64,000 nt of DNA, from positions 26,705 through 90,704 of the forward strand of contig JALGVI010000011.1 of NCBI GenBank assembly GCA_029838215.1. The letters run 5' to 3'. Below the pieces are notes generated by a model. The model did no database searches. It had not been told where the DNA came from and saw nothing but the letters and a program-made list of their open reading frames with translations. Below are positions 39,738 to 49,895 of the stretch, piece after piece. Made by a program: the position numbers and the translations under genes. How positions within the stretch are numbered: the stretch's first letter is position 1; the number at the start of each line of letters is the position of its first letter. This stretch comes from Candidatus Helarchaeota archaeon. GTDB lineage: Archaea > Asgardarchaeota > Lokiarchaeia > Helarchaeales > RDOG01.

Positions 39738-40281
39738 GCTTCAACCATTTTCCTTTTTTTAACAAACTTGGATATCTTTCTTTTAATGTTTTTCTTCGCG
39801 ATTCGGTCAAGTCCATGTCCTGTCACAGACGAAAAATATCTACAAAAACTTGAAATTTAAATGCTAAAAACCGAGCATGACCAAGGAAAAACTCCAACGA
39901 ATTGTGCCTTTACTATAGAAAAGAGCTCTAATAGTAAACTTATTCGTTTAGTTCAGCCATATCTCAGATCGAAAACTAGAAGGCTTACTGATTTTACATT
40001 TACTGAATTGAATATTCAATTTTTAAATACCAAAATTTAAAAATCTTTAATTTTCAAAATAAGTTATATTTATAGAAAGTACTAGCATAGTGGTAACAAT
40101 ATCACAAAAATGATGAGAAGCAAAGTTTGAAACAAATTGGATCTATAGGAAATTTATGGCATCCATCTGGACAATAGATATAATATTTAACTTCCGGACT
40201 TTAAGCGAGATTTGATGCATTCATTTTATCCATTCAATTAATTTCCGGAATGAAAGGTAGAACAATATTTGAAGTGAGCAC

Positions 40282-41436
40282 GTGCATAAAACTTTCAGTA
40301 TCTTGAAATTCTCATTGGTAATGGCTTTCAGGTCGATGAACCACCGAAGATTTCGTTCAATTTTAACAGTTGTAGGGATCATGATCGGTATCATGACATT
40401 CGTCTCGCTAATGGCCATCACGTTAGGAATGCGCGAGCGAATCGCAACCGTCCTAGACCAATTTGTTGGTGCACCAATAATTGTTTCAAGTGAAATCAGC
40501 GGAATGGCTCCAGGCATCCCAGGGGCGATGATCGATCGCATTGAAGAAATAAGTGGAGTTGATGCTGCAAGTGGATATATCTTCGATTATATGCAAGTAG
40601 GTGCATCCTTTGCTGCAGTTATTGGAATGGAACCCGGCAATTTGGAATCCATGTTTGTCATAAACATCCAAGAAGGGCGGGACCTCGAACCCGGTGATAA
40701 ATTCGAGTGCATAGTTGGTCCTGCGTTAATTGAATATGATGTTGGGGATAAAATTGTTCTAACCGGTGTCACTGGAATTTCAACTGGATTCGCAGAGTTG
40801 ACTGTTGTAGGAAAATATGCAAGCACGGGCACCTCTATGGCTGACTCGGCAATCATCATGCCAATAGATGGACTCCAAGAAATTATGAACACGGAAAATG
40901 TTCAATTCATATTGGTCGAATGTAGTTATGATGTTGCCAGTTCCATCGCTAGGTCCATTAAAGATACATATCCTGATGCTACAATCATCGAAAGCCAAGA
41001 GATACTTGATATGGCAAATCAGATCATAGACATGATTAACATCATTTTGGGAATTCTTAGCGGCATCACGCTCCTAGTCGGAGCTATTGGGATAATGAAT
41101 ACCACGATGATGAACGTGCTAGAACGAACACGCGAAATTGGAATCTTGAAGTCCATTGGAGCAACTAGATCTGAGGTTGTCACCATCTTCATTATTGAAG
41201 CGTTAATAATGTCGATTATTGGAGGTGCTCTCGGTTGTATTTCTGGTGTTGTCATGGTCCTTACTCTGAGTCAATTGGCAACCATTTTCATGCCAAATGC
41301 CCTCCCTTACAGTTTTCCATCATATATTTTCGTTATAGGTGTCTTAATGGCATTGGTTATTGGTGCTGTATCCGCTCTCTATCCAAGCCTTCAAGCTGCT
41401 TCTGTCCGCCCCGTTGAAGCCTTACGATATGAATGA
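40282..41436 (+). CDS. MacB/FtsX-like ABC permease
   Basis: RSILTVVGIMIG, GIMNTTMMNVLERTREIGILKSIGA, PVEALRYE. Confidence 0.95.
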   Translation: MHKTFSILKFSLVMAFRSMNHRRFRSILTVVGIMIGIMTFVSLMAITLGMRERIATVLDQFVGAPIIVSSEISGMAPGIPGAMIDRIEEISGVDAASGYIFDYMQVGASFAAVIGMEPGNLESMFVINIQEGRDLEPGDKFECIVGPALIEYDVGDKIVLTGVTGISTGFAELTVVGKYASTGTSMADSAIIMPIDGLQEIMNTENVQFILVECSYDVASSIARSIKDTYPDATIIESQEILDMANQIIDMINIILGILSGITLLVGAIGIMNTTMMNVLERTREIGILKSIGATRSEVVTIFIIEALIMSIIGGALGCISGVVMVLTLSQLATIFMPNALPYSFPSYIFVIGVLMALVIGAVSALYPSLQAASVRPVEALRYE

Positions 41437-42200
41437 TTGATGAGGAGAAAAAAACAATGCAATCTACAAAATCTCTTGCACGTGTCGCAAACGATTCAGA
41501 ACTTTGCAAGACATTCATGAATAAGCATTTATTTGTTTTGATCTCCTTATTGCAAGAGCCTCAAGGCTTAAGGGTTTCTGATATTCATCGAATTCTTGAA
41601 GGAAATAAATCGTGGATTTGTAATATCCTTTTAAAACTCGAAAAACTTGATCTTACGACTCGAATAAAATATGATGACAAGCGAGAGGTTTATTACAAAC
41701 TCACGGAAAGGGGAGAACAAGTCGCCACTAATGGTTTGAATCTAACTTATGATCTATTAGAACACGAAGGATTCAAAATCCTCTGGGAATATAACCCTGT
41801 ATATTTAATATTTGGTTCAGACCTAGAAAAACAAGAGTTTTCAAATAAAATAATTCGCTATAGAAGCAAGATAAAGCACCTTCCACTGCATAAATACGTG
41901 GGAAAATTAACTATTTATGATAATTACTTGACAATTATCGGAAAAGATCCATTCTTGAAGAAATTCTTTTTCTTTAAATTGGATTATGACAATGTTTTAG
42001 ACATTATCTTTGATTATGATAATCAATATAAAGGAAGATACGGTTCAATTCTTTCAAAACCGGTCAGAATTGATTTTTCACGATTGAATTCCAAATCTGA
42101 CTCCATCTATTTATTCATAGAATGGTCCCGATCATTTAAAACTGCCAAAAAAAACAAGGAATTCTATGAAAAATTAAAGGAAATTTTAAACGGTGAGTAA
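41433..42200 (+). CDS. MarR-like winged-helix protein with a PH-like C-terminal domain
   Basis: LRVSDIHRIL..NKSWICNILLKLEKLDL...YYKLTERGE; beta-rich C-terminal half ending in a helix. Confidence 0.7.
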   Translation: MIDEEKKTMQSTKSLARVANDSELCKTFMNKHLFVLISLLQEPQGLRVSDIHRILEGNKSWICNILLKLEKLDLTTRIKYDDKREVYYKLTERGEQVATNGLNLTYDLLEHEGFKILWEYNPVYLIFGSDLEKQEFSNKIIRYRSKIKHLPLHKYVGKLTIYDNYLTIIGKDPFLKKFFFFKLDYDNVLDIIFDYDNQYKGRYGSILSKPVRIDFSRLNSKSDSIYLFIEWSRSFKTAKKNKEFYEKLKEILNGE

Positions 42201-42202
42201 TT

Positions 42203-43183
42203 TTGGCTCGAGACATGATTAAACTCCGAAATATCAGGAAGATTTATGATTTAGGAGAAGTTAAAGTCCACGCTCTAAGAGGAGTATCACTTACAGTTAA
42301 AGAACGTGAATTCACGTGTATTATGGGCCCGTCTGGCTCTGGCAAGACTACATTGCTTAATATGGTTGGAGCATTAGATACTCCCACTTCTGGTCGCGTG
42401 ATCGTGGATGGAATTGACATTACCGACTTCAGCGAAGACCAAGTGGGAGATATTCGTTGCCGAAAGATCGGTTTCGTGTTTCAATTCTTTAACCTCTTAC
42501 CTCTATTAACCAGCCTTGAAAATGTCGAACTTCCAATGATGTTTCTGGGTGAACTCTCCCCTGCCGAAGCAACGTCTCGTGCCAAGGACTTGCTCACGAT
42601 TGTTGGACTTGAAAAACGCCTTTATCATCGCCCTGTGGAACTAAGCGGTGGACAACAGCAGCGTGTAGCAATTGCACGTGCATTTGCAAATAACCCTGCA
42701 CTCATCTTGGCTGATGAACCAACAGGTAACGTGGATACGCTGACTGGCGTGGAAATATTGAGATTGATGAAAAGACTAAATCGAGAAGAAGGTCAAACGT
42801 TTGTCATTATCACGCACGACCCGGGCGTTGCAGGTGTTTCCTCGCGAAGTGTTTATGTCGTAGACGGTCGAATCACGGATCGCGTGCCAGAAGGCGTAGC
42901 ACCACCCAGCGATCATATCGCAAGGCGAATGTACGAACCAATAAACGTAAAAATTGAAAAGATAAAGAAACTTAAAGCCGAGCTTTACAAATATCAACAG
43001 GACTTCCAGCTTTTTCTCAAGCGAAAAAATGAAATCGATCCAATATTATATCGAAAGGCCAAGAATGATTTTATATCACGCATAAATGACTTGCAAAAAA
43101 CCATTTTAGCCGCCATTCAAACCACGCATGAGAAGTTCATTTTTGACCAAGTAAAGGTTCAAGGAGGAAAGAAAAATGAATAA
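42203..43183 (+). CDS. LolD/MacB-like ABC ATPase with a C-terminal helical extension
   Basis: GPSGSGKT, LSGGQQQR, ILADEPTG, ITHD; about 85 extra aa at the C-terminus. Confidence 0.95.
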   Translation: MARDMIKLRNIRKIYDLGEVKVHALRGVSLTVKEREFTCIMGPSGSGKTTLLNMVGALDTPTSGRVIVDGIDITDFSEDQVGDIRCRKIGFVFQFFNLLPLLTSLENVELPMMFLGELSPAEATSRAKDLLTIVGLEKRLYHRPVELSGGQQQRVAIARAFANNPALILADEPTGNVDTLTGVEILRLMKRLNREEGQTFVIITHDPGVAGVSSRSVYVVDGRITDRVPEGVAPPSDHIARRMYEPINVKIEKIKKLKAELYKYQQDFQLFLKRKNEIDPILYRKAKNDFISRINDLQKTILAAIQTTHEKFIFDQVKVQGGKKNE

Positions 43184-46100
43184 AAACAAAAAAATTACAG
43201 GATTATTACTAGTTTCCTTTCTAATTCTATCAATGGTTATAAGTACCATTACTATCTGTGCAATGTTATTATTGAAAAATCCCTCATCATACATGTCAAA
43301 TCCAAATAATCACGTGCTCTTGACTGCAAGTGGGTCTGAAAACGTGACAAACCTCGTCGTGACGAAAACAGAAACAATTCAAGTTAATGTGATGCCTGAT
43401 GGAACCATCGAAAAACCGAAAGTCACGATTAATATCATCATTCAAAATCTGGCAGAAACCGGAACTCGTTTCGATTTCTTAGATCGCATCGAAATGGGCA
43501 TTCCCGAAACATTAAGTCTCTTACTTGACACGCCAACTCCAGAAACTTCTTACGAACATGACGTGTTTTATTTAAACTGGACCGACATTGAGATTGATGG
43601 TCTCGAAACATACACGCTTGATTATACCATTGAATCCAATAAAATGGTTCCAATTAATGTCAGCGTTGCGTATTATGTTGATGGTGAACATGTGAACGTC
43701 AGTTCCGATAATAAGATTTCAGTACCGGAAAAATCCAATCTAACCTGCTATTTCACGCTTGCAAATAATCACGAAGGTTATTTCCTGACGGAAGGTCCTC
43801 AAAATCCGATGGCATTTGCTCTCATTTCTGCAAATCTTCCTTCTGAAACCATTGGAGACATAACGTCAAATCCTCCACCGCTACTTGAAGCTGATGTATC
43901 TCTTCTCAGACAAGTCACGTGGTTCACTTTGCTCACGGAAAATTCAACGGTGTTCAATTGGACTGCACCCATCGAAAGTGGCGGAGGATGGGGAATCATC
44001 GAATTAGAACCCCTGAGTATCACGATTACACAGAGTAAATCAATGACCGATACCGTAACGGGAGGTGTTTCTGCCCTTCTCGGTTCACTGATGGGTATTG
44101 AAGGATTCTGGTCATATTTCGTCGTGGAATCAATTATTGATCAATTAAGTCTTCTTGATAACGTCATGGAACTATTCGTCGACATGTTAATGGGCGAAAT
44201 GGGCGTGATGGACACAATAATGTACTCCGCGTTGGGCAATATCGACTTTACTGCCGGAACTGAAGCCATTTTCACATCCCTCGAACAAAATAGCTCTCTA
44301 TTTTCCCTGTTCAAGTTGGATTATTTGCTCGACTTCCTTGAAGGAGTGGATGACGATCAGTTTGGACTCGTTGTTAATACAAAATCGCAAATTACCGGCA
44401 TTGTCGAACAGGTTAAAACGGGACTCGTGGCTTCTATCGGAGCCCAAATCATTTCTCTTCTGGGCTCACCGGTAAATATCACGATTCAAGAACTAAACCG
44501 AACCCAAAGAATTTGGAATAGTTCCTCTTTTATGGGATATGAATTGACTGATGCAATCATCAGTAATGATTTAGACCAAAATAACATTCCTGAAATCCTT
44601 TTAGCACTATACAATTCAAGTGCAGATGAATCAATCATAGTAGCTCTTGAATACGACAAAGATACATCTGAATACGTGCAAGTTTGGAACTCAACTCAAA
44701 GTCCTAATGTATTATACAATATTCCCCCACTAGGATCAACCACCATAAATGGTAGAATCAATCAGGGTTGTTTGAAAGTTGGAGATCTAGACGAAGATGA
44801 TGATCGTGAAATAATAGTCGGAACTACACACAAAGATCTCATCGTATTTGAATGGACCAACGAACTTCTCACGCATAGTTTTGACTATCTTGGTGGCGGA
44901 CCTTTATATCGACGCCATAACCTTCAACTCAGTGATACAAGTGCTAATGTTTCATCTGTTCTCGCTCCCGATACTCCCTTGAATTCAAGTTCTAAAAGTC
45001 TTATATTCGGACTCATGAATGGAACCATCATTTTAGCGGATGTAGGAAATATGGGAGGAAATCATGCTGCCCTGAGCATCACCACCAACTGGCACAAAGA
45101 CATGCAGGGCACGATTACGGACATCTCTGTTGGTAATACAGATGCTGATTCCTTCCCTGAACTAATCTTCCGGAATGAGTCCATGGTTTTCATTTATGAA
45201 AACATTACTGACATCAGCGGATTATCTGATGGACTCCAGCCTTTATGGAACTTGTCCAATTCCATGGACACCATGATCGCAGGTTACTCGAATGGAAATG
45301 GTAAATCCGAATTGATTGCCATTAATGGCACGCACGTAAATGTCACCGAGGCAATCGTGTCTACAAATACAACAGCCATATCACCTACCGTGATTGTTAC
45401 ATATGAAACCCTAGAAGGATATAATGAAAGTCTCTGGAATACGAAATATTCCTCTTCTATTGATAATTCCACGAATTTTACAAATGTCGCCATCGGTGAT
45501 ATGAATGAAAATGGGCTGAAAGAAATAATTACCGCAAATGAGAATGGTTCTATCTTCATCTACGAAAATATTAATCAAGAAAATTATCATCAAATCCTCG
45601 AATTTACTGATTCTGCCGAATTCGGCTCCAGCGGATTTTGCCTCGGAGATGTTAATGATGATAATCATCCCGAATTTATCTTATTGGGTAATGACTCACG
45701 CGTCCACGTTATAGAACGACTATTTCCTTCGATAGGAGCTTCGATTAACATCTATGCAAACCTGACCAGAGACCCAATTGACAACATGAAAACAGACCTT
45801 TATACAAGAATTAACGTGAGCAATCTCGCCATCGATTTATTTGGCGGTTTCGCTCCTCTCACGATTAATCAACAATATGTCTATGATGGAGATGGCCCTC
45901 AAGTAATCCACGTCGCTACAAAATTTAGTGAAAACTATACTACCGAATCAAAGAAATCGGTTATTGTAAATCACACTCTTCGTGATACTCCCAATAGTGT
46001 TGAAGGAATATGGGAAGATGGCGTGGGAACAGATAAATATAATCCCGATGGCACATATTCTTACCTAGAAGATGGTAAAACCAACTTGACACTAGGATCT

Positions 46101-49100
46101 GGACAAGAATTCACTTACAATAACACGAATGTTACGGTGAATTATACGGCTTACGTATTGGTAGATCCTATATATGGTTATAATCTTACTACATTTCCTC
46201 CATATGATTATGTTTCACCTGGAACTGGCTCTACATTTCCTGCTATCTATCCATTCTTAGTTGAACAACTCCAAACGAGCACTTCTTCTCTATTCAAGTT
46301 CTTGGGTAATCTAACCTCTTCCGTAGTCAAGTTATACATGCTCTTAAATGCGACCATCACTGAAATACCGACATTATCGGGAGGAAAACCGATCACGTTT
46401 AGGTCTGGATTCAGCCCAGCAGGACTTGTCCAAGACTTCTCGCTATTCCAACCAAAAGAAACGCCATTTGGAACTCAAGGTGCAGGAGTTGCTTCTTCTG
46501 ACCTAGGCGTTGGCTTCGGCATGGATTCCAGCTTTGCAGGCATGACAGGCCAATTTGGAATGGGTGACATGAATGAAACATTTTCCGATTTTTACTTCGA
46601 TTCGTTACTCCAGATTTTCCTGAATCCTTCACTTGCCGCACGATTTGTTTATAATTTCACCATAGACGGCAACTTCACGAATTTTGCAGATCCCATTTTC
46701 CTTCCAAATCCCGAAAATATCGTGATTAATTCATTCGACTTATCAGATCCTCAAGCAATGCTTGACATGTTTAATGAAGGTATAGAAGTTCTCGGCAACT
46801 ATACCGAGAAACAAAACGTTACGAGTAGTCTAGATTTTACCCCGATTCTACTTGAAGACATCAATAATGATGGATATAATGATACGTTGGTTGGAATTAA
46901 CGGTTTCTATCCATACTATCAAATCTTTGCAATTTCTGGGCAAGACAATTCTTTCCTTTGGAATTTCACCACGCGCGGTGCCGTTGTTTCCATGACAACC
47001 AATTTAACTTCCAAAGAATTAGTCGTCGTTACAAATGATGCCGATTATAACTTCTTGAATGAAACTTCCAACATACTATACAAGATTAATTTGACAGACG
47101 GTTCAATCATTGATGGTAAAAATGGCGTGCAGATGACCTGTAACGAAAGTCTAAATTTCTTCTACGGTAATGATGCCTCATATATCGGCGACCCGATGTT
47201 TTCAATCCAGGATAGAGATACTTATGAAGTCAGCTTCAAACCCTTGCGATATGATTCCGATAATTTTACTATCTTCACGTTCCTCAATGAAATGAAAGGA
47301 TTTCAAGCATCAAGTTCTGGAAATGATGTAGTGTATGATGTATCTTCTTGGACTTACGATGCACTGTCTTTAATCCAAGATCAATTCTTTGTCGATCTTG
47401 ATGGTGACGGTATTGAGGAAATTGTCATTTCAACAGCAAGTGGACATGTTTTTGCCATTAACAAGACAGGTAGTGAAGTTTGGAGATATAAGACCAAAAG
47501 CATCATTAGAGGCATTGAAATCGGCGATATAAACAAGGATACTCACCCTGATATAATTGTCGGCTGTATCGATGGGACCATTCATGCAATTGATGCAAAT
47601 GGAACTCGCCAATGGACCCATGATTTTACAGGCAATCTCATTCATGACGTGACCCTTTTCGACTTCAATGATGATGGCGATCTCGAGACCATTGTCAGCG
47701 GTAGTGATTATTGCTTGCATGCCATCAATAGAACAGGTGATCTTATTTGGACTTTTAATTCTTCAAATAATTTAGCCCTGAATAATTCGGTGACCATCGA
47801 TTCGGTGAATTTGGCAATTTTAAATACCACGCTAACGGCAGTATTCGGTGCAAGCGATAACGTCCTGTATTTCTTAAACATTACTAACAACACGGCACCA
47901 AGTTACACTCAACAATTCTACCTTGGAAATCAAATTACCACCTTTCAGATGTACCGAACGAACGAAACCATTTCGCTTCAATATAATTTACCTGATAACA
48001 TCATCTCCATGTTGGGATCATTGACATCAACCAACTTTGAAAGCATGCTAAGCGATCTACAATCAGGATTTGATTTTGATCTTTCAATGGGCGCCCTAAG
48101 TGGACTTGATTTCATGGGAATGGGAATGGATTCATCAATGCTCCAATTCGGTCAAAGTTTTAATCTGAGCGAGTTGATTGACTTGAATAACTTCACGATC
48201 GGTATCGGGCTACTCAACCTGATTCTTTCAGAAGCCGAATATCTCATTCAATTGCAAGATTGGAGCACCCTCTCTCGAACTCAACGGGAATACACGGGTA
48301 AGTGTGATGTAATTGATACTGGAGTAGACGTGTCATATCAGACCACAAATCGTTCGAATGGAAATGTCATATGGTACGATATCACTAATGAAGACATGTT
48401 CTATGACCTCCGCGTGAATTACTTCTCGATAATGGTAAACGATAGCGGCGATGCAATTGATTGGGATCGGATCCAATTTTTGGCTTGGAACGGCACGGAC
48501 TATGTTGATCTGATGAATAATTCCATCTACAACATCACGTTAGATACGTTGGACATCACGATGAAGAACGTGCAGGATTCTTCAGGGCTGTATAACCATA
48601 CTGAAATTCGGTTCCGACCGTTCTTGACAGTTCCTACTGAAGAAACTAAAAACATCACGCTTGACTGGCTGGGTAGACCCATATTCCTAAATATTTCTGG
48701 CTCCTACAATCTATCATGCTGGAGTGACGTTAGCATTATATTACCATCCGTGACTTACGTTAGTGTCACTTCCACGTACACGACTGCAGTAACATATCCA
48801 CTTATTATTGTATTCGACGTAGGAGATATATACATTCCTCCTGCTCCGTATCAGCCGAATATTTTGGAAGAAATACTCACGAATCCAATTTTCTACTTCA
48901 TTCTCATTGCCATCACCATGATGTTTCTTGAAGTGGCATATTTATACAAGCGAGACCGGTTCAAGCTCCATAAAAAAGGATCAAAGAATGTCATCAATTG
49001 GTTGAAACGAAGGGAAAAAGGCTGGGAAATTCTGGCTCAAAACGGAATTCTCTATCCAGAACAAGTAGAAGTGCTAAAACGGTTTAAACTACGCATTCAA

Positions 49101-49895
49101 AGAGAAATGAAAGAATCAAGCTTCGTCACGGTCATCCGAGAAAAGCTTCCAAAGCGTCAATTCATTTATGCATGCCTGCGCACGTTCTTCTTATTTGATT
49201 ACATTCGGGACACGGGCAAGCGCTCCCGACTTGCAATCGTCATGGATAGCATGGTCGATTCCACCTTGGTACCAATTCAAAAAGGATTAGTGAAATTTCT
49301 GACGGCATTGCAACACATTTTAATGGGCAAGAGTAAAAAAGCTAAACTCTTGGAACAACTCGAACGTGAAAAACGCGAACGCACTCCTGATGAAGCTCTT
49401 GTTTCAAAGAAAAAAGGCGACAAAATAACTTCTAAATCGAAAAAGAAACTCGAAACCGATGGAGGAGTCCTGAACAAAAGAATCCAATCCGTAAAGAAAA
49501 GACTTCCCAATTTCTATACACCTGAAGGAAAAGTATTCTATACACTATCAAAAAACAGATTTATAGGCACCACAATGGAACAACTCTCAAAAGAACTGAA
49601 AATCCCTATCATCGAACTCCTCCCAACCGTAATTCGGCTCTATGAGAAGGGATTGCTCATCCTTTTACAAGAAGGTGATTCAATCGCTGATGATCTTTGG
49701 GACATTGCCAGCACCCTGCGGAAACAAGATCCCGACATTGAAAAGATAATTTATAGCATGAAAACGCTTGAAGAATCATTGACCGAAACGCTAGCGGAAT
49801 TATTGACCAATAAAAAAATCTGCCCAAAATGCGGAACGACTATTGAAGAAAACGAAACCAAATGTTCCAAATGTGGCGAAGAAATTAAAAATTAG
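43176..49895 (+). CDS. Giant membrane protein with FG-GAP-like repeats and cytoplasmic winged helix / Zn ribbon
   Basis: N-terminal hydrophobic segment; about 10 Dx[DN]xDG-type loops (e.g. GDLDEDDDREIIVG, GDVNDDNHPEF, DLDGDGIEEIV); TM near 48888-48947; C-terminal wHTH and CPKC...CSKC. Confidence 0.85.
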   Translation: MNKNKKITGLLLVSFLILSMVISTITICAMLLLKNPSSYMSNPNNHVLLTASGSENVTNLVVTKTETIQVNVMPDGTIEKPKVTINIIIQNLAETGTRFDFLDRIEMGIPETLSLLLDTPTPETSYEHDVFYLNWTDIEIDGLETYTLDYTIESNKMVPINVSVAYYVDGEHVNVSSDNKISVPEKSNLTCYFTLANNHEGYFLTEGPQNPMAFALISANLPSETIGDITSNPPPLLEADVSLLRQVTWFTLLTENSTVFNWTAPIESGGGWGIIELEPLSITITQSKSMTDTVTGGVSALLGSLMGIEGFWSYFVVESIIDQLSLLDNVMELFVDMLMGEMGVMDTIMYSALGNIDFTAGTEAIFTSLEQNSSLFSLFKLDYLLDFLEGVDDDQFGLVVNTKSQITGIVEQVKTGLVASIGAQIISLLGSPVNITIQELNRTQRIWNSSSFMGYELTDAIISNDLDQNNIPEILLALYNSSADESIIVALEYDKDTSEYVQVWNSTQSPNVLYNIPPLGSTTINGRINQGCLKVGDLDEDDDREIIVGTTHKDLIVFEWTNELLTHSFDYLGGGPLYRRHNLQLSDTSANVSSVLAPDTPLNSSSKSLIFGLMNGTIILADVGNMGGNHAALSITTNWHKDMQGTITDISVGNTDADSFPELIFRNESMVFIYENITDISGLSDGLQPLWNLSNSMDTMIAGYSNGNGKSELIAINGTHVNVTEAIVSTNTTAISPTVIVTYETLEGYNESLWNTKYSSSIDNSTNFTNVAIGDMNENGLKEIITANENGSIFIYENINQENYHQILEFTDSAEFGSSGFCLGDVNDDNHPEFILLGNDSRVHVIERLFPSIGASINIYANLTRDPIDNMKTDLYTRINVSNLAIDLFGGFAPLTINQQYVYDGDGPQVIHVATKFSENYTTESKKSVIVNHTLRDTPNSVEGIWEDGVGTDKYNPDGTYSYLEDGKTNLTLGSGQEFTYNNTNVTVNYTAYVLVDPIYGYNLTTFPPYDYVSPGTGSTFPAIYPFLVEQLQTSTSSLFKFLGNLTSSVVKLYMLLNATITEIPTLSGGKPITFRSGFSPAGLVQDFSLFQPKETPFGTQGAGVASSDLGVGFGMDSSFAGMTGQFGMGDMNETFSDFYFDSLLQIFLNPSLAARFVYNFTIDGNFTNFADPIFLPNPENIVINSFDLSDPQAMLDMFNEGIEVLGNYTEKQNVTSSLDFTPILLEDINNDGYNDTLVGINGFYPYYQIFAISGQDNSFLWNFTTRGAVVSMTTNLTSKELVVVTNDADYNFLNETSNILYKINLTDGSIIDGKNGVQMTCNESLNFFYGNDASYIGDPMFSIQDRDTYEVSFKPLRYDSDNFTIFTFLNEMKGFQASSSGNDVVYDVSSWTYDALSLIQDQFFVDLDGDGIEEIVISTASGHVFAINKTGSEVWRYKTKSIIRGIEIGDINKDTHPDIIVGCIDGTIHAIDANGTRQWTHDFTGNLIHDVTLFDFNDDGDLETIVSGSDYCLHAINRTGDLIWTFNSSNNLALNNSVTIDSVNLAILNTTLTAVFGASDNVLYFLNITNNTAPSYTQQFYLGNQITTFQMYRTNETISLQYNLPDNIISMLGSLTSTNFESMLSDLQSGFDFDLSMGALSGLDFMGMGMDSSMLQFGQSFNLSELIDLNNFTIGIGLLNLILSEAEYLIQLQDWSTLSRTQREYTGKCDVIDTGVDVSYQTTNRSNGNVIWYDITNEDMFYDLRVNYFSIMVNDSGDAIDWDRIQFLAWNGTDYVDLMNNSIYNITLDTLDITMKNVQDSSGLYNHTEIRFRPFLTVPTEETKNITLDWLGRPIFLNISGSYNLSCWSDVSIILPSVTYVSVTSTYTTAVTYPLIIVFDVGDIYIPPAPYQPNILEEILTNPIFYFILIAITMMFLEVAYLYKRDRFKLHKKGSKNVINWLKRREKGWEILAQNGILYPEQVEVLKRFKLRIQREMKESSFVTVIREKLPKRQFIYACLRTFFLFDYIRDTGKRSRLAIVMDSMVDSTLVPIQKGLVKFLTALQHILMGKSKKAKLLEQLEREKRERTPDEALVSKKKGDKITSKSKKKLETDGGVLNKRIQSVKKRLPNFYTPEGKVFYTLSKNRFIGTTMEQLSKELKIPIIELLPTVIRLYEKGLLILLQEGDSIADDLWDIASTLRKQDPDIEKIIYSMKTLEESLTETLAELLTNKKICPKCGTTIEENETKCSKCGEEIKN

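Follow-up and report, generated by a model that had tools for sequence, protein, structure and literature searches.

A giant FG-GAP propeller protein of Helarchaeales encoded with a MacB/FtsX-type ABC pair, a putative partner of a mechanotransmission complex

In a stretch of 64,000 nucleotides (nt) of DNA from Candidatus Helarchaeota archaeon (assembly GCA_029838215.1, contig JALGVI010000011.1, positions 26,705 to 90,704 of the forward strand; hereafter the window, whose positions are used throughout and whose genome is called G000), four overlapping or abutting genes on the + strand encode a permease, a MarR-type protein, an ATP-binding cassette (ABC) ATPase and a giant protein of 2,239 amino acids (aa). 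An earlier reading of the same DNA (the original prediction) had proposed that the giant is a one-component transmembrane receptor with a DNA-binding tail. The analysis presented here favours a role of the giant as a partner in an ATP-driven surface machine over one as a transcription factor tethered to the membrane. The unit consists of the following genes:

40282..41436, + strand: FtsX/MacB-type permease, 384 aa (Pfam FtsX, 1.7e-21, aa 258-374; MacB_PCD, 2.5e-16, aa 26-215)
41433..42200, + strand: accessory cytoplasmic protein, 255 aa, with a basic MarR/HTH_27-type winged helix and a basic C-terminal domain (HTH_27, 8.4e-07)
42203..43183, + strand: ABC ATPase of the MJ0796/LolD/MacB type (aa 1-228) with a helical C-terminal extension (aa ~230-326) (ABC_tran, 4.4e-33)
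43176..49895, + strand: giant, 2,239 aa, a membrane glycoprotein candidate (intact open reading frame (ORF), homologues found)

The permease, which is found in every homologous operon, begins with a transmembrane (TM) helix, TM1, followed by an extracytoplasmic MacB_PCD domain and three further TM helices, four in total by Pfam and hydropathy. Its nearest solved chains are MacB, Spr0695, LolC and YtrF, and LolC and LolF were matched over their full length. The ATPase domain closely resembles MJ0796 (5.5e-74), LolD (1.6e-61) and MacB (1.5e-55), and its identity among the operons is 57-67%. Solved chains of this type (MJ0796, LolD, MacB and YtrE) align to aa 5-229 only, and none of these relatives carries a counterpart of the helical extension of ~90 residues that follows. 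The start of the giant overlaps the stop of the ATPase gene by 8 nt, and is supported by a Lys-rich N-terminus and a hydrophobic anchor that are conserved in all homologues.

We searched 400 Asgard genomes, 7 of them from the order of the window (Helarchaeales) and 393 from elsewhere, for the ATPase extension and for the cytoplasmic tail of the giant. The extension is present once per genome in all seven genomes of the order, with clear matches (E <= 2.2e-8), and the 393 other genomes returned a single marginal partial match (G134, E 3e-4). The tail is confined to Helarchaeales, where it occurs in 7/7 genomes (its winged-helix (WH) profile being single-copy in each), apart from weak partial matches in 17/393 genomes elsewhere (E 2e-6 to 8e-4) that fall on the C-terminal WH/helix/ribbon part; two of these matches were read, and one is a similarity of the ribbon only, the other a standalone WH relative. 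By these profile matches, the clear distribution of the ATPase extension matches that of the tail. Among 1.84 billion proteins the tail profile retrieved only 17 representatives. Homologues carry the NCBI name ‘hypothetical protein’ or ‘FG-GAP-like repeat-containing protein’ and come from Lokiarchaeota, Promethearchaeota or Helarchaeota archaea. Proteins of ~324 aa from another genus, which match the end of the tail, were rejected as unrelated, the similarity being confined to the zinc ribbon.

The arrangement of the genes is conserved as well. In G000, L001, G123, G125, G126, G127 and G128 the giant follows immediately after the ATPase gene, and G124 is consistent with this order, but a contig break intervenes. 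The order permease, ATPase, giant recurs, with genes that overlap or abut, in L001, G123, G125, G126, G127 and G128, across lineages whose giants share as little as about 28% identity, and the flanking genes vary by family-level lineage (those of G000, G128 and G126 differ from the set common to L001 and G125). In the window the unit is flanked by unrelated housekeeping genes, namely those for aspartate-semialdehyde dehydrogenase and a DeoC-type aldolase upstream and a convergent gene for a proteasome beta subunit downstream. The MarR-type gene, for which the closest relative bears the label Helarchaeales, is optional. G000, L001, G124 and G125 have it (the orthologues of L001 and G125 occupy the same slot, with 37-38% identity), and the operons of G123, G126 and G128 lack it. 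Gene order and profile matches define the conserved unit as permease, ATPase with its unique extension, and giant, that is, three core genes and one optional gene. Finally, the window genome contains 17 ORFs of at least 1,500 aa, and the giant alone adjoins an FtsX-family gene, of which there are three or four in total.

Several further features of these operons and genomes were noted. Two imperfect palindromes with a TTCCGGA core (40187-40204 and 40238-40255, 51 bp apart) lie 27-95 nt upstream of the permease start and are candidate operators for a dimeric winged helix-turn-helix (wHTH) protein such as the MarR-type protein; L001 has another, GC-cored palindrome at -87, and a palindrome motif common to the operons of the different genomes was not found. 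The C-terminal half of the MarR-type protein (aa 120-255; 41790-42197) is basic and conserved in three orthologues, its sole lead being a faint match to bacterial PH domains (E 0.07). Elsewhere in the window genome, at the start of contig C55 (55-1206), is a second FtsX/MacB permease of 384 aa, 61% identical to that of the operon, with no ABC or giant gene after it; it may pair with the latter as a LolC/LolE-like heterodimer or be a variant from a co-binned strain (bin contamination is 6.2%). The same genome has open frames of 4,972 and 5,550 aa (contigs C3 and C51), and its set of giant proteins is unusually large for 3.6 Mb. In genomes of family f2 another ABC set precedes the module (L001 1-5425; L015 3-4354; L017 9853-13998), consisting of a protein of >1,000 aa with prenyltransferase/squalene-cyclase-like repeats and an ABC ATPase, followed by two ABC-2 permeases.

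Aligning the giants (11 to 15 sequences) yielded the following domain map:

43200..43274, + strand: N-terminal hydrophobic anchor or signal sequence, aa 9-33, after MNKNKK (hydropathy; conserved in homologues)
43347..44045, + strand: conserved N-terminal beta-rich domain, aa 58-290, ending in an invariant GGGWG..E..P motif (alignment of 15 giants)
44046..44495, + strand: hydrophobic Met-rich segment, aa 291-440, helical by sequence inference only (sequence, alignment)
44508..45755, + strand: propeller 1, 7-blade FG-GAP type with six Ca-type loops, aa 445-860 (loop reading; FG-GAP_3 on orthologous regions)
46176..46775, + strand: conserved middle segment, aa 1001-1200, a helical part and a Gly/Met-rich linker (alignment of giants)
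46776..47945, + strand: propeller 2, aa ~1201-1590, present in all homologues (Beta-prop_CGLA, 1.3e-20; FG-GAP_3, 4.4e-13)
47946..48845, + strand: conserved C-terminal ectodomain module, aa 1591-1890, comprising a Gly-rich linker, a conserved hydrophobic helix and a beta-rich membrane-proximal domain (alignment)
48882..48947, + strand: TM helix, aa 1903-1924, followed by KRDRFKLHKK (hydropathy)
48948..49310, + strand: juxtamembrane helical domain, aa 1925-2045, net charge +16, with a conserved WLKRREK..W motif (alignment; no known family matched)
49311..49487, + strand: Lys-rich linker of variable length, aa 2046-2104, predicted disordered, the site of gene fission in one clade (alignment, prediction)
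49488..49811, + strand: acidic winged-helix-like module, aa 2105-2180, and acidic amphipathic helix, aa 2181-2212 (profiles, AlphaFold2 (AF2) model, charge)
49821..49883, + strand: CPKC-x10-CSKC zinc ribbon, aa 2216-2236 (Zn_Ribbon_1, 24.3 bits against a cut-off of 25 bits)

Hydropathy detects only two TM-grade segments in the giant, one at aa 4-35, behind MNKNKK, and one at aa 1896-1924. They enclose an ectodomain of ~1,860 aa that is acidic, poor in Cys and rich in Asn, Ser, Thr and Asp, and in which Pfam found no catalytic domain; behind them is a tail of 315 aa rich in Lys, Arg and Glu. This switch in composition, together with the positive-inside rule, is real evidence for a predicted cytoplasmic location of the tail. 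By contrast, the fact that all 71 NxS/T sequons lie before aa 1900 and none in the tail is a weak signal, as composition alone predicts about one there. Judged from these features, the giant is anchored in the membrane at its ends, with Ca-type FG-GAP propellers (one or two) on the outer side and, on the inner side, the basic juxtamembrane domain and the acidic WH module.

Propeller 1 has Ca-type loops at aa 464, 536, 653, ~705, 774 and 824 (nt 44565-45690), with one degenerate blade between them; Pfam is weak on this region of the window giant, and the orthologous regions of two homologues match FG-GAP_3 at 5e-27 (P0008) and 1e-10 (P0025). It is an insertion confined to one family-level clade and is missing from the group-B homologues. 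In propeller 2 the loops are at aa 1228, 1405, 1450 and 1494. Conservation among the giants is highest in four parts, namely the N-terminal and C-terminal bases, the juxtamembrane domain and the WH module. The first three of these gave no usable match in profile searches of Pfam or the PDB, which compare sequences and say nothing on fold novelty; nor did the C-terminal base in an ESM Atlas feature search, and by sequence no other ectodomain part outside the propellers matched Pfam or the PDB either. What had first been observed at this level was confirmed: the frame at 43176-49895 is intact, both propeller regions were recovered with six and four Ca-type loops, the TM helix placed at about 48888-48947 agrees with hydropathy, and the proposed topology, ectodomain outside and tail inside, is supported. 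The Met-rich segments are indeed present in the window giant, but they are not conserved in the homologues, and a role of such stretches as copper-binding motifs was rejected on the same ground.

The tail was the part of the giant on which the original prediction rested its case for a signalling receptor with a DNA-binding tail, possibly released by proteolysis. Spelled out, this model has propeller ligands trigger the release (through proteolysis in the Lys-rich linker) or the activation of a WH/zinc-ribbon tail that then binds DNA. The stretch it had taken for a wHTH lies at aa 2133-2161. An AF2 model of the WH module, built from 18 sequences (per-residue confidence, pLDDT, 72), has a three-helix core at pLDDT 75-90, and the 50 best VIA matches of this model are wHTH domains without exception (50/50, including the families Lrp/AsnC, ArsR, MarR, MecI, SelB, RuvB and RPA32C). 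Akin to such DNA-binding proteins as the core may be, the resemblance is limited: (i) the Z-scores are modest (5.5-6.6, over 51-83 residues); (ii) the wing is modelled as a helix (pLDDT 57-60) and not as a beta hairpin; (iii) Foldseek against the PDB gave nothing better than E 0.5 (none at E <= 0.001), with only local helix-turn-helix and zinc-finger matches; (iv) sequence profiles gave sub-threshold wHTH matches only; and (v) the Atlas shape search mostly matched helix and ribbon. A model of the whole tail was too poor for structure searches and for judging how WH module and juxtamembrane domain pack (pLDDT 56, predicted TM-score (pTM) 0.26).

The surface charge bears more directly on DNA binding. 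The WH core has an isoelectric point of 4.4-5.5 in most homologues, and in 17 of 18 family members helix 3 and the wing carry a net charge of -2 to -5 around an invariant D..W motif, whereas the same elements of the MarR-type protein of the operon carry +2 to +3. The acidic helix 3 and wing argue against a classical DNA-reading surface in the WH module, and the claim of a DNA-binding tail fares poorly on this evidence. Comparison of the two winged helices by hhalign revealed no homology, so that the tail module is not a recent copy of the MarR-type protein. The zinc ribbon, for its part, is present as described (CPKC...CSKC, aa 2216-2233) and has local Foldseek matches to zinc fingers, but it is absent from all of the ~14 homologues examined, which end in acidic or Lys-rich tails without Cys. 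Judged from these sequences it is a feature of this genome's protein and not of the family.

A natural separation of the WH module was encountered in one clade. Four giants (P0008, P0019, P0026 and P0027) end just after the juxtamembrane domain, and in both cases in which the downstream DNA was read (L014 in G128, and the independent contig L019) a separate WH ORF follows 7-20 nt downstream of the giant. The two separate WH genes are 62% identical, with a proportion of non-synonymous differences (pN) of 0.22 against a synonymous one (pS) of 0.90, the latter saturated. These sequence comparisons point to a real gene fission at the predicted disordered linker and to a free WH protein under purifying selection. 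As the WH module is a separate gene in this clade, the covalent tether is not essential, and regulated proteolytic release, which is possible, is not a required mechanism.

Other relatives of the WH module were found outside the giants. On contig L023 (1521-2234) a 237-aa protein (P0016) combines a PAS domain with a WH module almost identical to the one in giant P0014; the two parts meet at a W.GEF.NDGG motif common to PAS domains and the linkers of the giants. This contig of 2.2 kb, with a bacterial-looking neighbour, may be an assembly chimera. Standalone WH relatives of 122-132 aa exist in another Asgard family (L041 616-1815 in G297; L020-L022, P0024), and each is followed by a coiled-coil, apolipoprotein-like protein of ~260 aa, forming a conserved gene pair.

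In light of these data, the one-component receptor is an unlikely explanation. The cytoplasmic tail and the wHTH-like core would suit it, proteases would have access to the linker, which is long, basic and probably disordered, the WH module has a basic arm immediately in front of it and can act as a free soluble protein in one clade, and the ribbon gives this genome's version a WH-plus-ribbon layout like that of small archaeal regulators and TFE, which we take as a lead only. Yet, beyond the acidic surface and the helical wing, the ribbon is private to one genome, the fission clade has no covalent tether to cleave, the module contains no conserved protease gene, and the invariant ABC pair is left unexplained. 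The acidic WH module, the private ribbon and the fission together make a DNA-binding tail released by proteolysis a possible model, but not the leading one, and what is most conserved about the giant is not that of a stand-alone receptor, but its coupling to a MacB/FtsX-type ABC pair.

What such a pair may do is suggested by its relatives. MacB-fold ABC systems do not carry their substrates across the membrane but relay ATP-driven movement to an extracytoplasmic domain, which passes it on to partners, such as EnvC, PcsB and RipC in the case of FtsEX, MacA-TolC, and lipoproteins in the case of LolCDE (PMC5985334, PMC7668044, PMC7468199). We therefore favour, with a probability of about 0.5, the reading that a type VII (MacB/FtsX-fold) ABC mechanotransmission complex has the giant as its dedicated partner and forms with it a Helarchaeales-specific envelope module, in which the giant would act in adhesion or sensing. 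In such a complex the propellers would bind an external ligand or another cell surface, and the extracytoplasmic domain of the permease would contact the conserved membrane-proximal base of the giant, whose TM segments would lie beside the permease. Signalling might run in either direction: ATP hydrolysis could shift the posture or affinity of the head, or ligand binding could feed back on the ATPase, as in FtsEX with EnvC, PcsB and RipC. Inside the cell, the juxtamembrane domain would meet the ATPase extension to make the interface, and the acidic WH module, fused or free, may serve as a detachable protein-binding adaptor or regulator rather than as a DNA reader, the basic MarR-type protein being, where present, the likelier DNA-binding output.

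Four points weigh against the partnership with the ABC pair: (i) the argument draws on synteny, translational coupling and co-distribution in one order, and its seven related genomes are not independent samples; (ii) the contact between giant and ABC pair is a prediction from gene context; (iii) the base of the ectodomain is known only from its sequence, and its likeness to an EnvC-like coiled coil or stalk is putative; and (iv) the acidic WH module may still bind nucleic acid through the basic arm just ahead of it.

A structural role, in which the giant is a surface glycoprotein or adhesin of the cell coat or a protrusion, the tail anchors it to a cytoplasmic scaffold, and the ABC pair is needed only for its biogenesis (insertion, quality control) or shares no more than its regulation, strikes us as just as unlikely as the one-component receptor. 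The large, acidic, sequon-rich and Cys-poor ectodomain without a catalytic domain would fit this role, as would the many other giants of the genome; likewise, the acidic surface fits the WH-like module as a protein adaptor, and the standalone WH relatives adjoin a long coiled-coil protein. However, the other 16 giants of the genome have no MacB-type neighbour, the ATPase has acquired by co-evolution a private extension that is distributed like the tail, and the tail is among the best-conserved parts of the giant, which a passive anchor would not need. Very unlikely is a Lol-like or MacB-like extraction, in which the giant, whole or processed, is drawn from the membrane by the ABC pair for shedding or hand-over to an outer structure: the nearest solved proteins include LolC/LolF for the permease and LolD for the ATPase, and the paralogue on contig C55 could form a LolC/LolE-like heterodimer, but a conserved 315-aa cytoplasmic tail behind the TM helix would be hard to extract, no lipobox or acceptor protein was seen, and Asgard cells, to our knowledge, have no outer membrane as a destination.

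Comparison with known systems sharpens the picture of the giant as an ABC partner. Like the FtsEX systems with EnvC, PcsB, CwlO or RipC, the Helarchaeales module has a MacB-fold permease with its extracytoplasmic domain between TM1 and TM2 and an ATPase of the LolD/MacB type (PMC7668044, PMC7468199, PMC5985334), and in both a protein partner that is not transported is encoded alongside, with a proposed relay of ATP-driven movement to a surface protein. The partner of FtsEX, however, is a soluble coiled-coil activator of hydrolases, whereas that of the Helarchaeales pair would be an integral membrane protein of 2,239 aa with propellers and a large tail; moreover, the ATPase has its private C-terminal extension, the archaeal host offers no peptidoglycan target, and the contact with the partner is a predicted one. 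BceAB-BceS is similar in that a MacB-superfamily ABC machine signals to a cytoplasmic output instead of serving bulk transport, and BceA is among the matches of the ATPase. BceB is a 10-TM permease paired with a histidine kinase; the Helarchaeales permease has 4 TM helices, and its partner would be a giant receptor-like protein.

Two further comparisons concern the giant itself. With ToxR/CadC and the factors released by regulated proteolysis it has in common that a single polypeptide holds an extracytoplasmic sensor, a TM helix and a cytoplasmic domain of the winged-helix type, a putative one in the giant. In ToxR and CadC this domain is a basic OmpR-type wHTH, N-terminal and directly before the TM helix; in the giant it is C-terminal, acidic, ~180 residues from the membrane and a separate gene in one clade. 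As the WH module is at the wrong end, acidic and separable, the giant is not a regulator of the ToxR/CadC type. Integrin alpha and LINKIN/ITFG1 likewise possess a 7-blade FG-GAP propeller with Ca-type loops, a membrane-anchored stalk and a cytoplasmic tail, a layout that follows the logic of an adhesion receptor (PMC3192720, PMC4275582). The giant differs from integrin alpha, however, in that it has another propeller besides, its stalk domains are unrelated, its tail is much larger, the sequence after its TM helix is YKRDRFKLHKK and the integrin-type GFFKR motif is not present there, and the module contains no beta-integrin-like gene (the rest of the genome was not searched). Lacking the GFFKR motif and a beta subunit in the module, and having an unrelated stalk, the giant is not an integrin; and as FG-GAP propellers are common in prokaryotes, the likeness is one of analogy and not of membership. 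A literature search found no paper on this giant or on Asgard FG-GAP receptors, and the giant belongs to no described family.

Taken together, the analysis corrects an attractive but weakly founded idea, that of a giant receptor with a DNA-binding tail, and places the giant in a small, well-defined module that occurs in every sampled genome of one order and whose parts can be expressed and assayed. Research on eukaryotic origins has yet to settle how Asgard cells attach to their syntrophic partners, and mechanisms have been put forward for hardly any of the surface machinery of these archaea. Going further, and with a distinctly lower expectation of being right, Helarchaeales may have an integrin-like bidirectional surface receptor with an ABC motor, in which ATP hydrolysis would set the adhesive state of the propeller head and a ligand signal would pass through the juxtamembrane domain to the detachable WH adaptor, which with the MarR-type protein would reprogram transcription. 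If this improbable proposal were true, such an ABC-powered, integrin-like receptor would be an Asgard device for both outside-in and inside-out signalling without a described counterpart.

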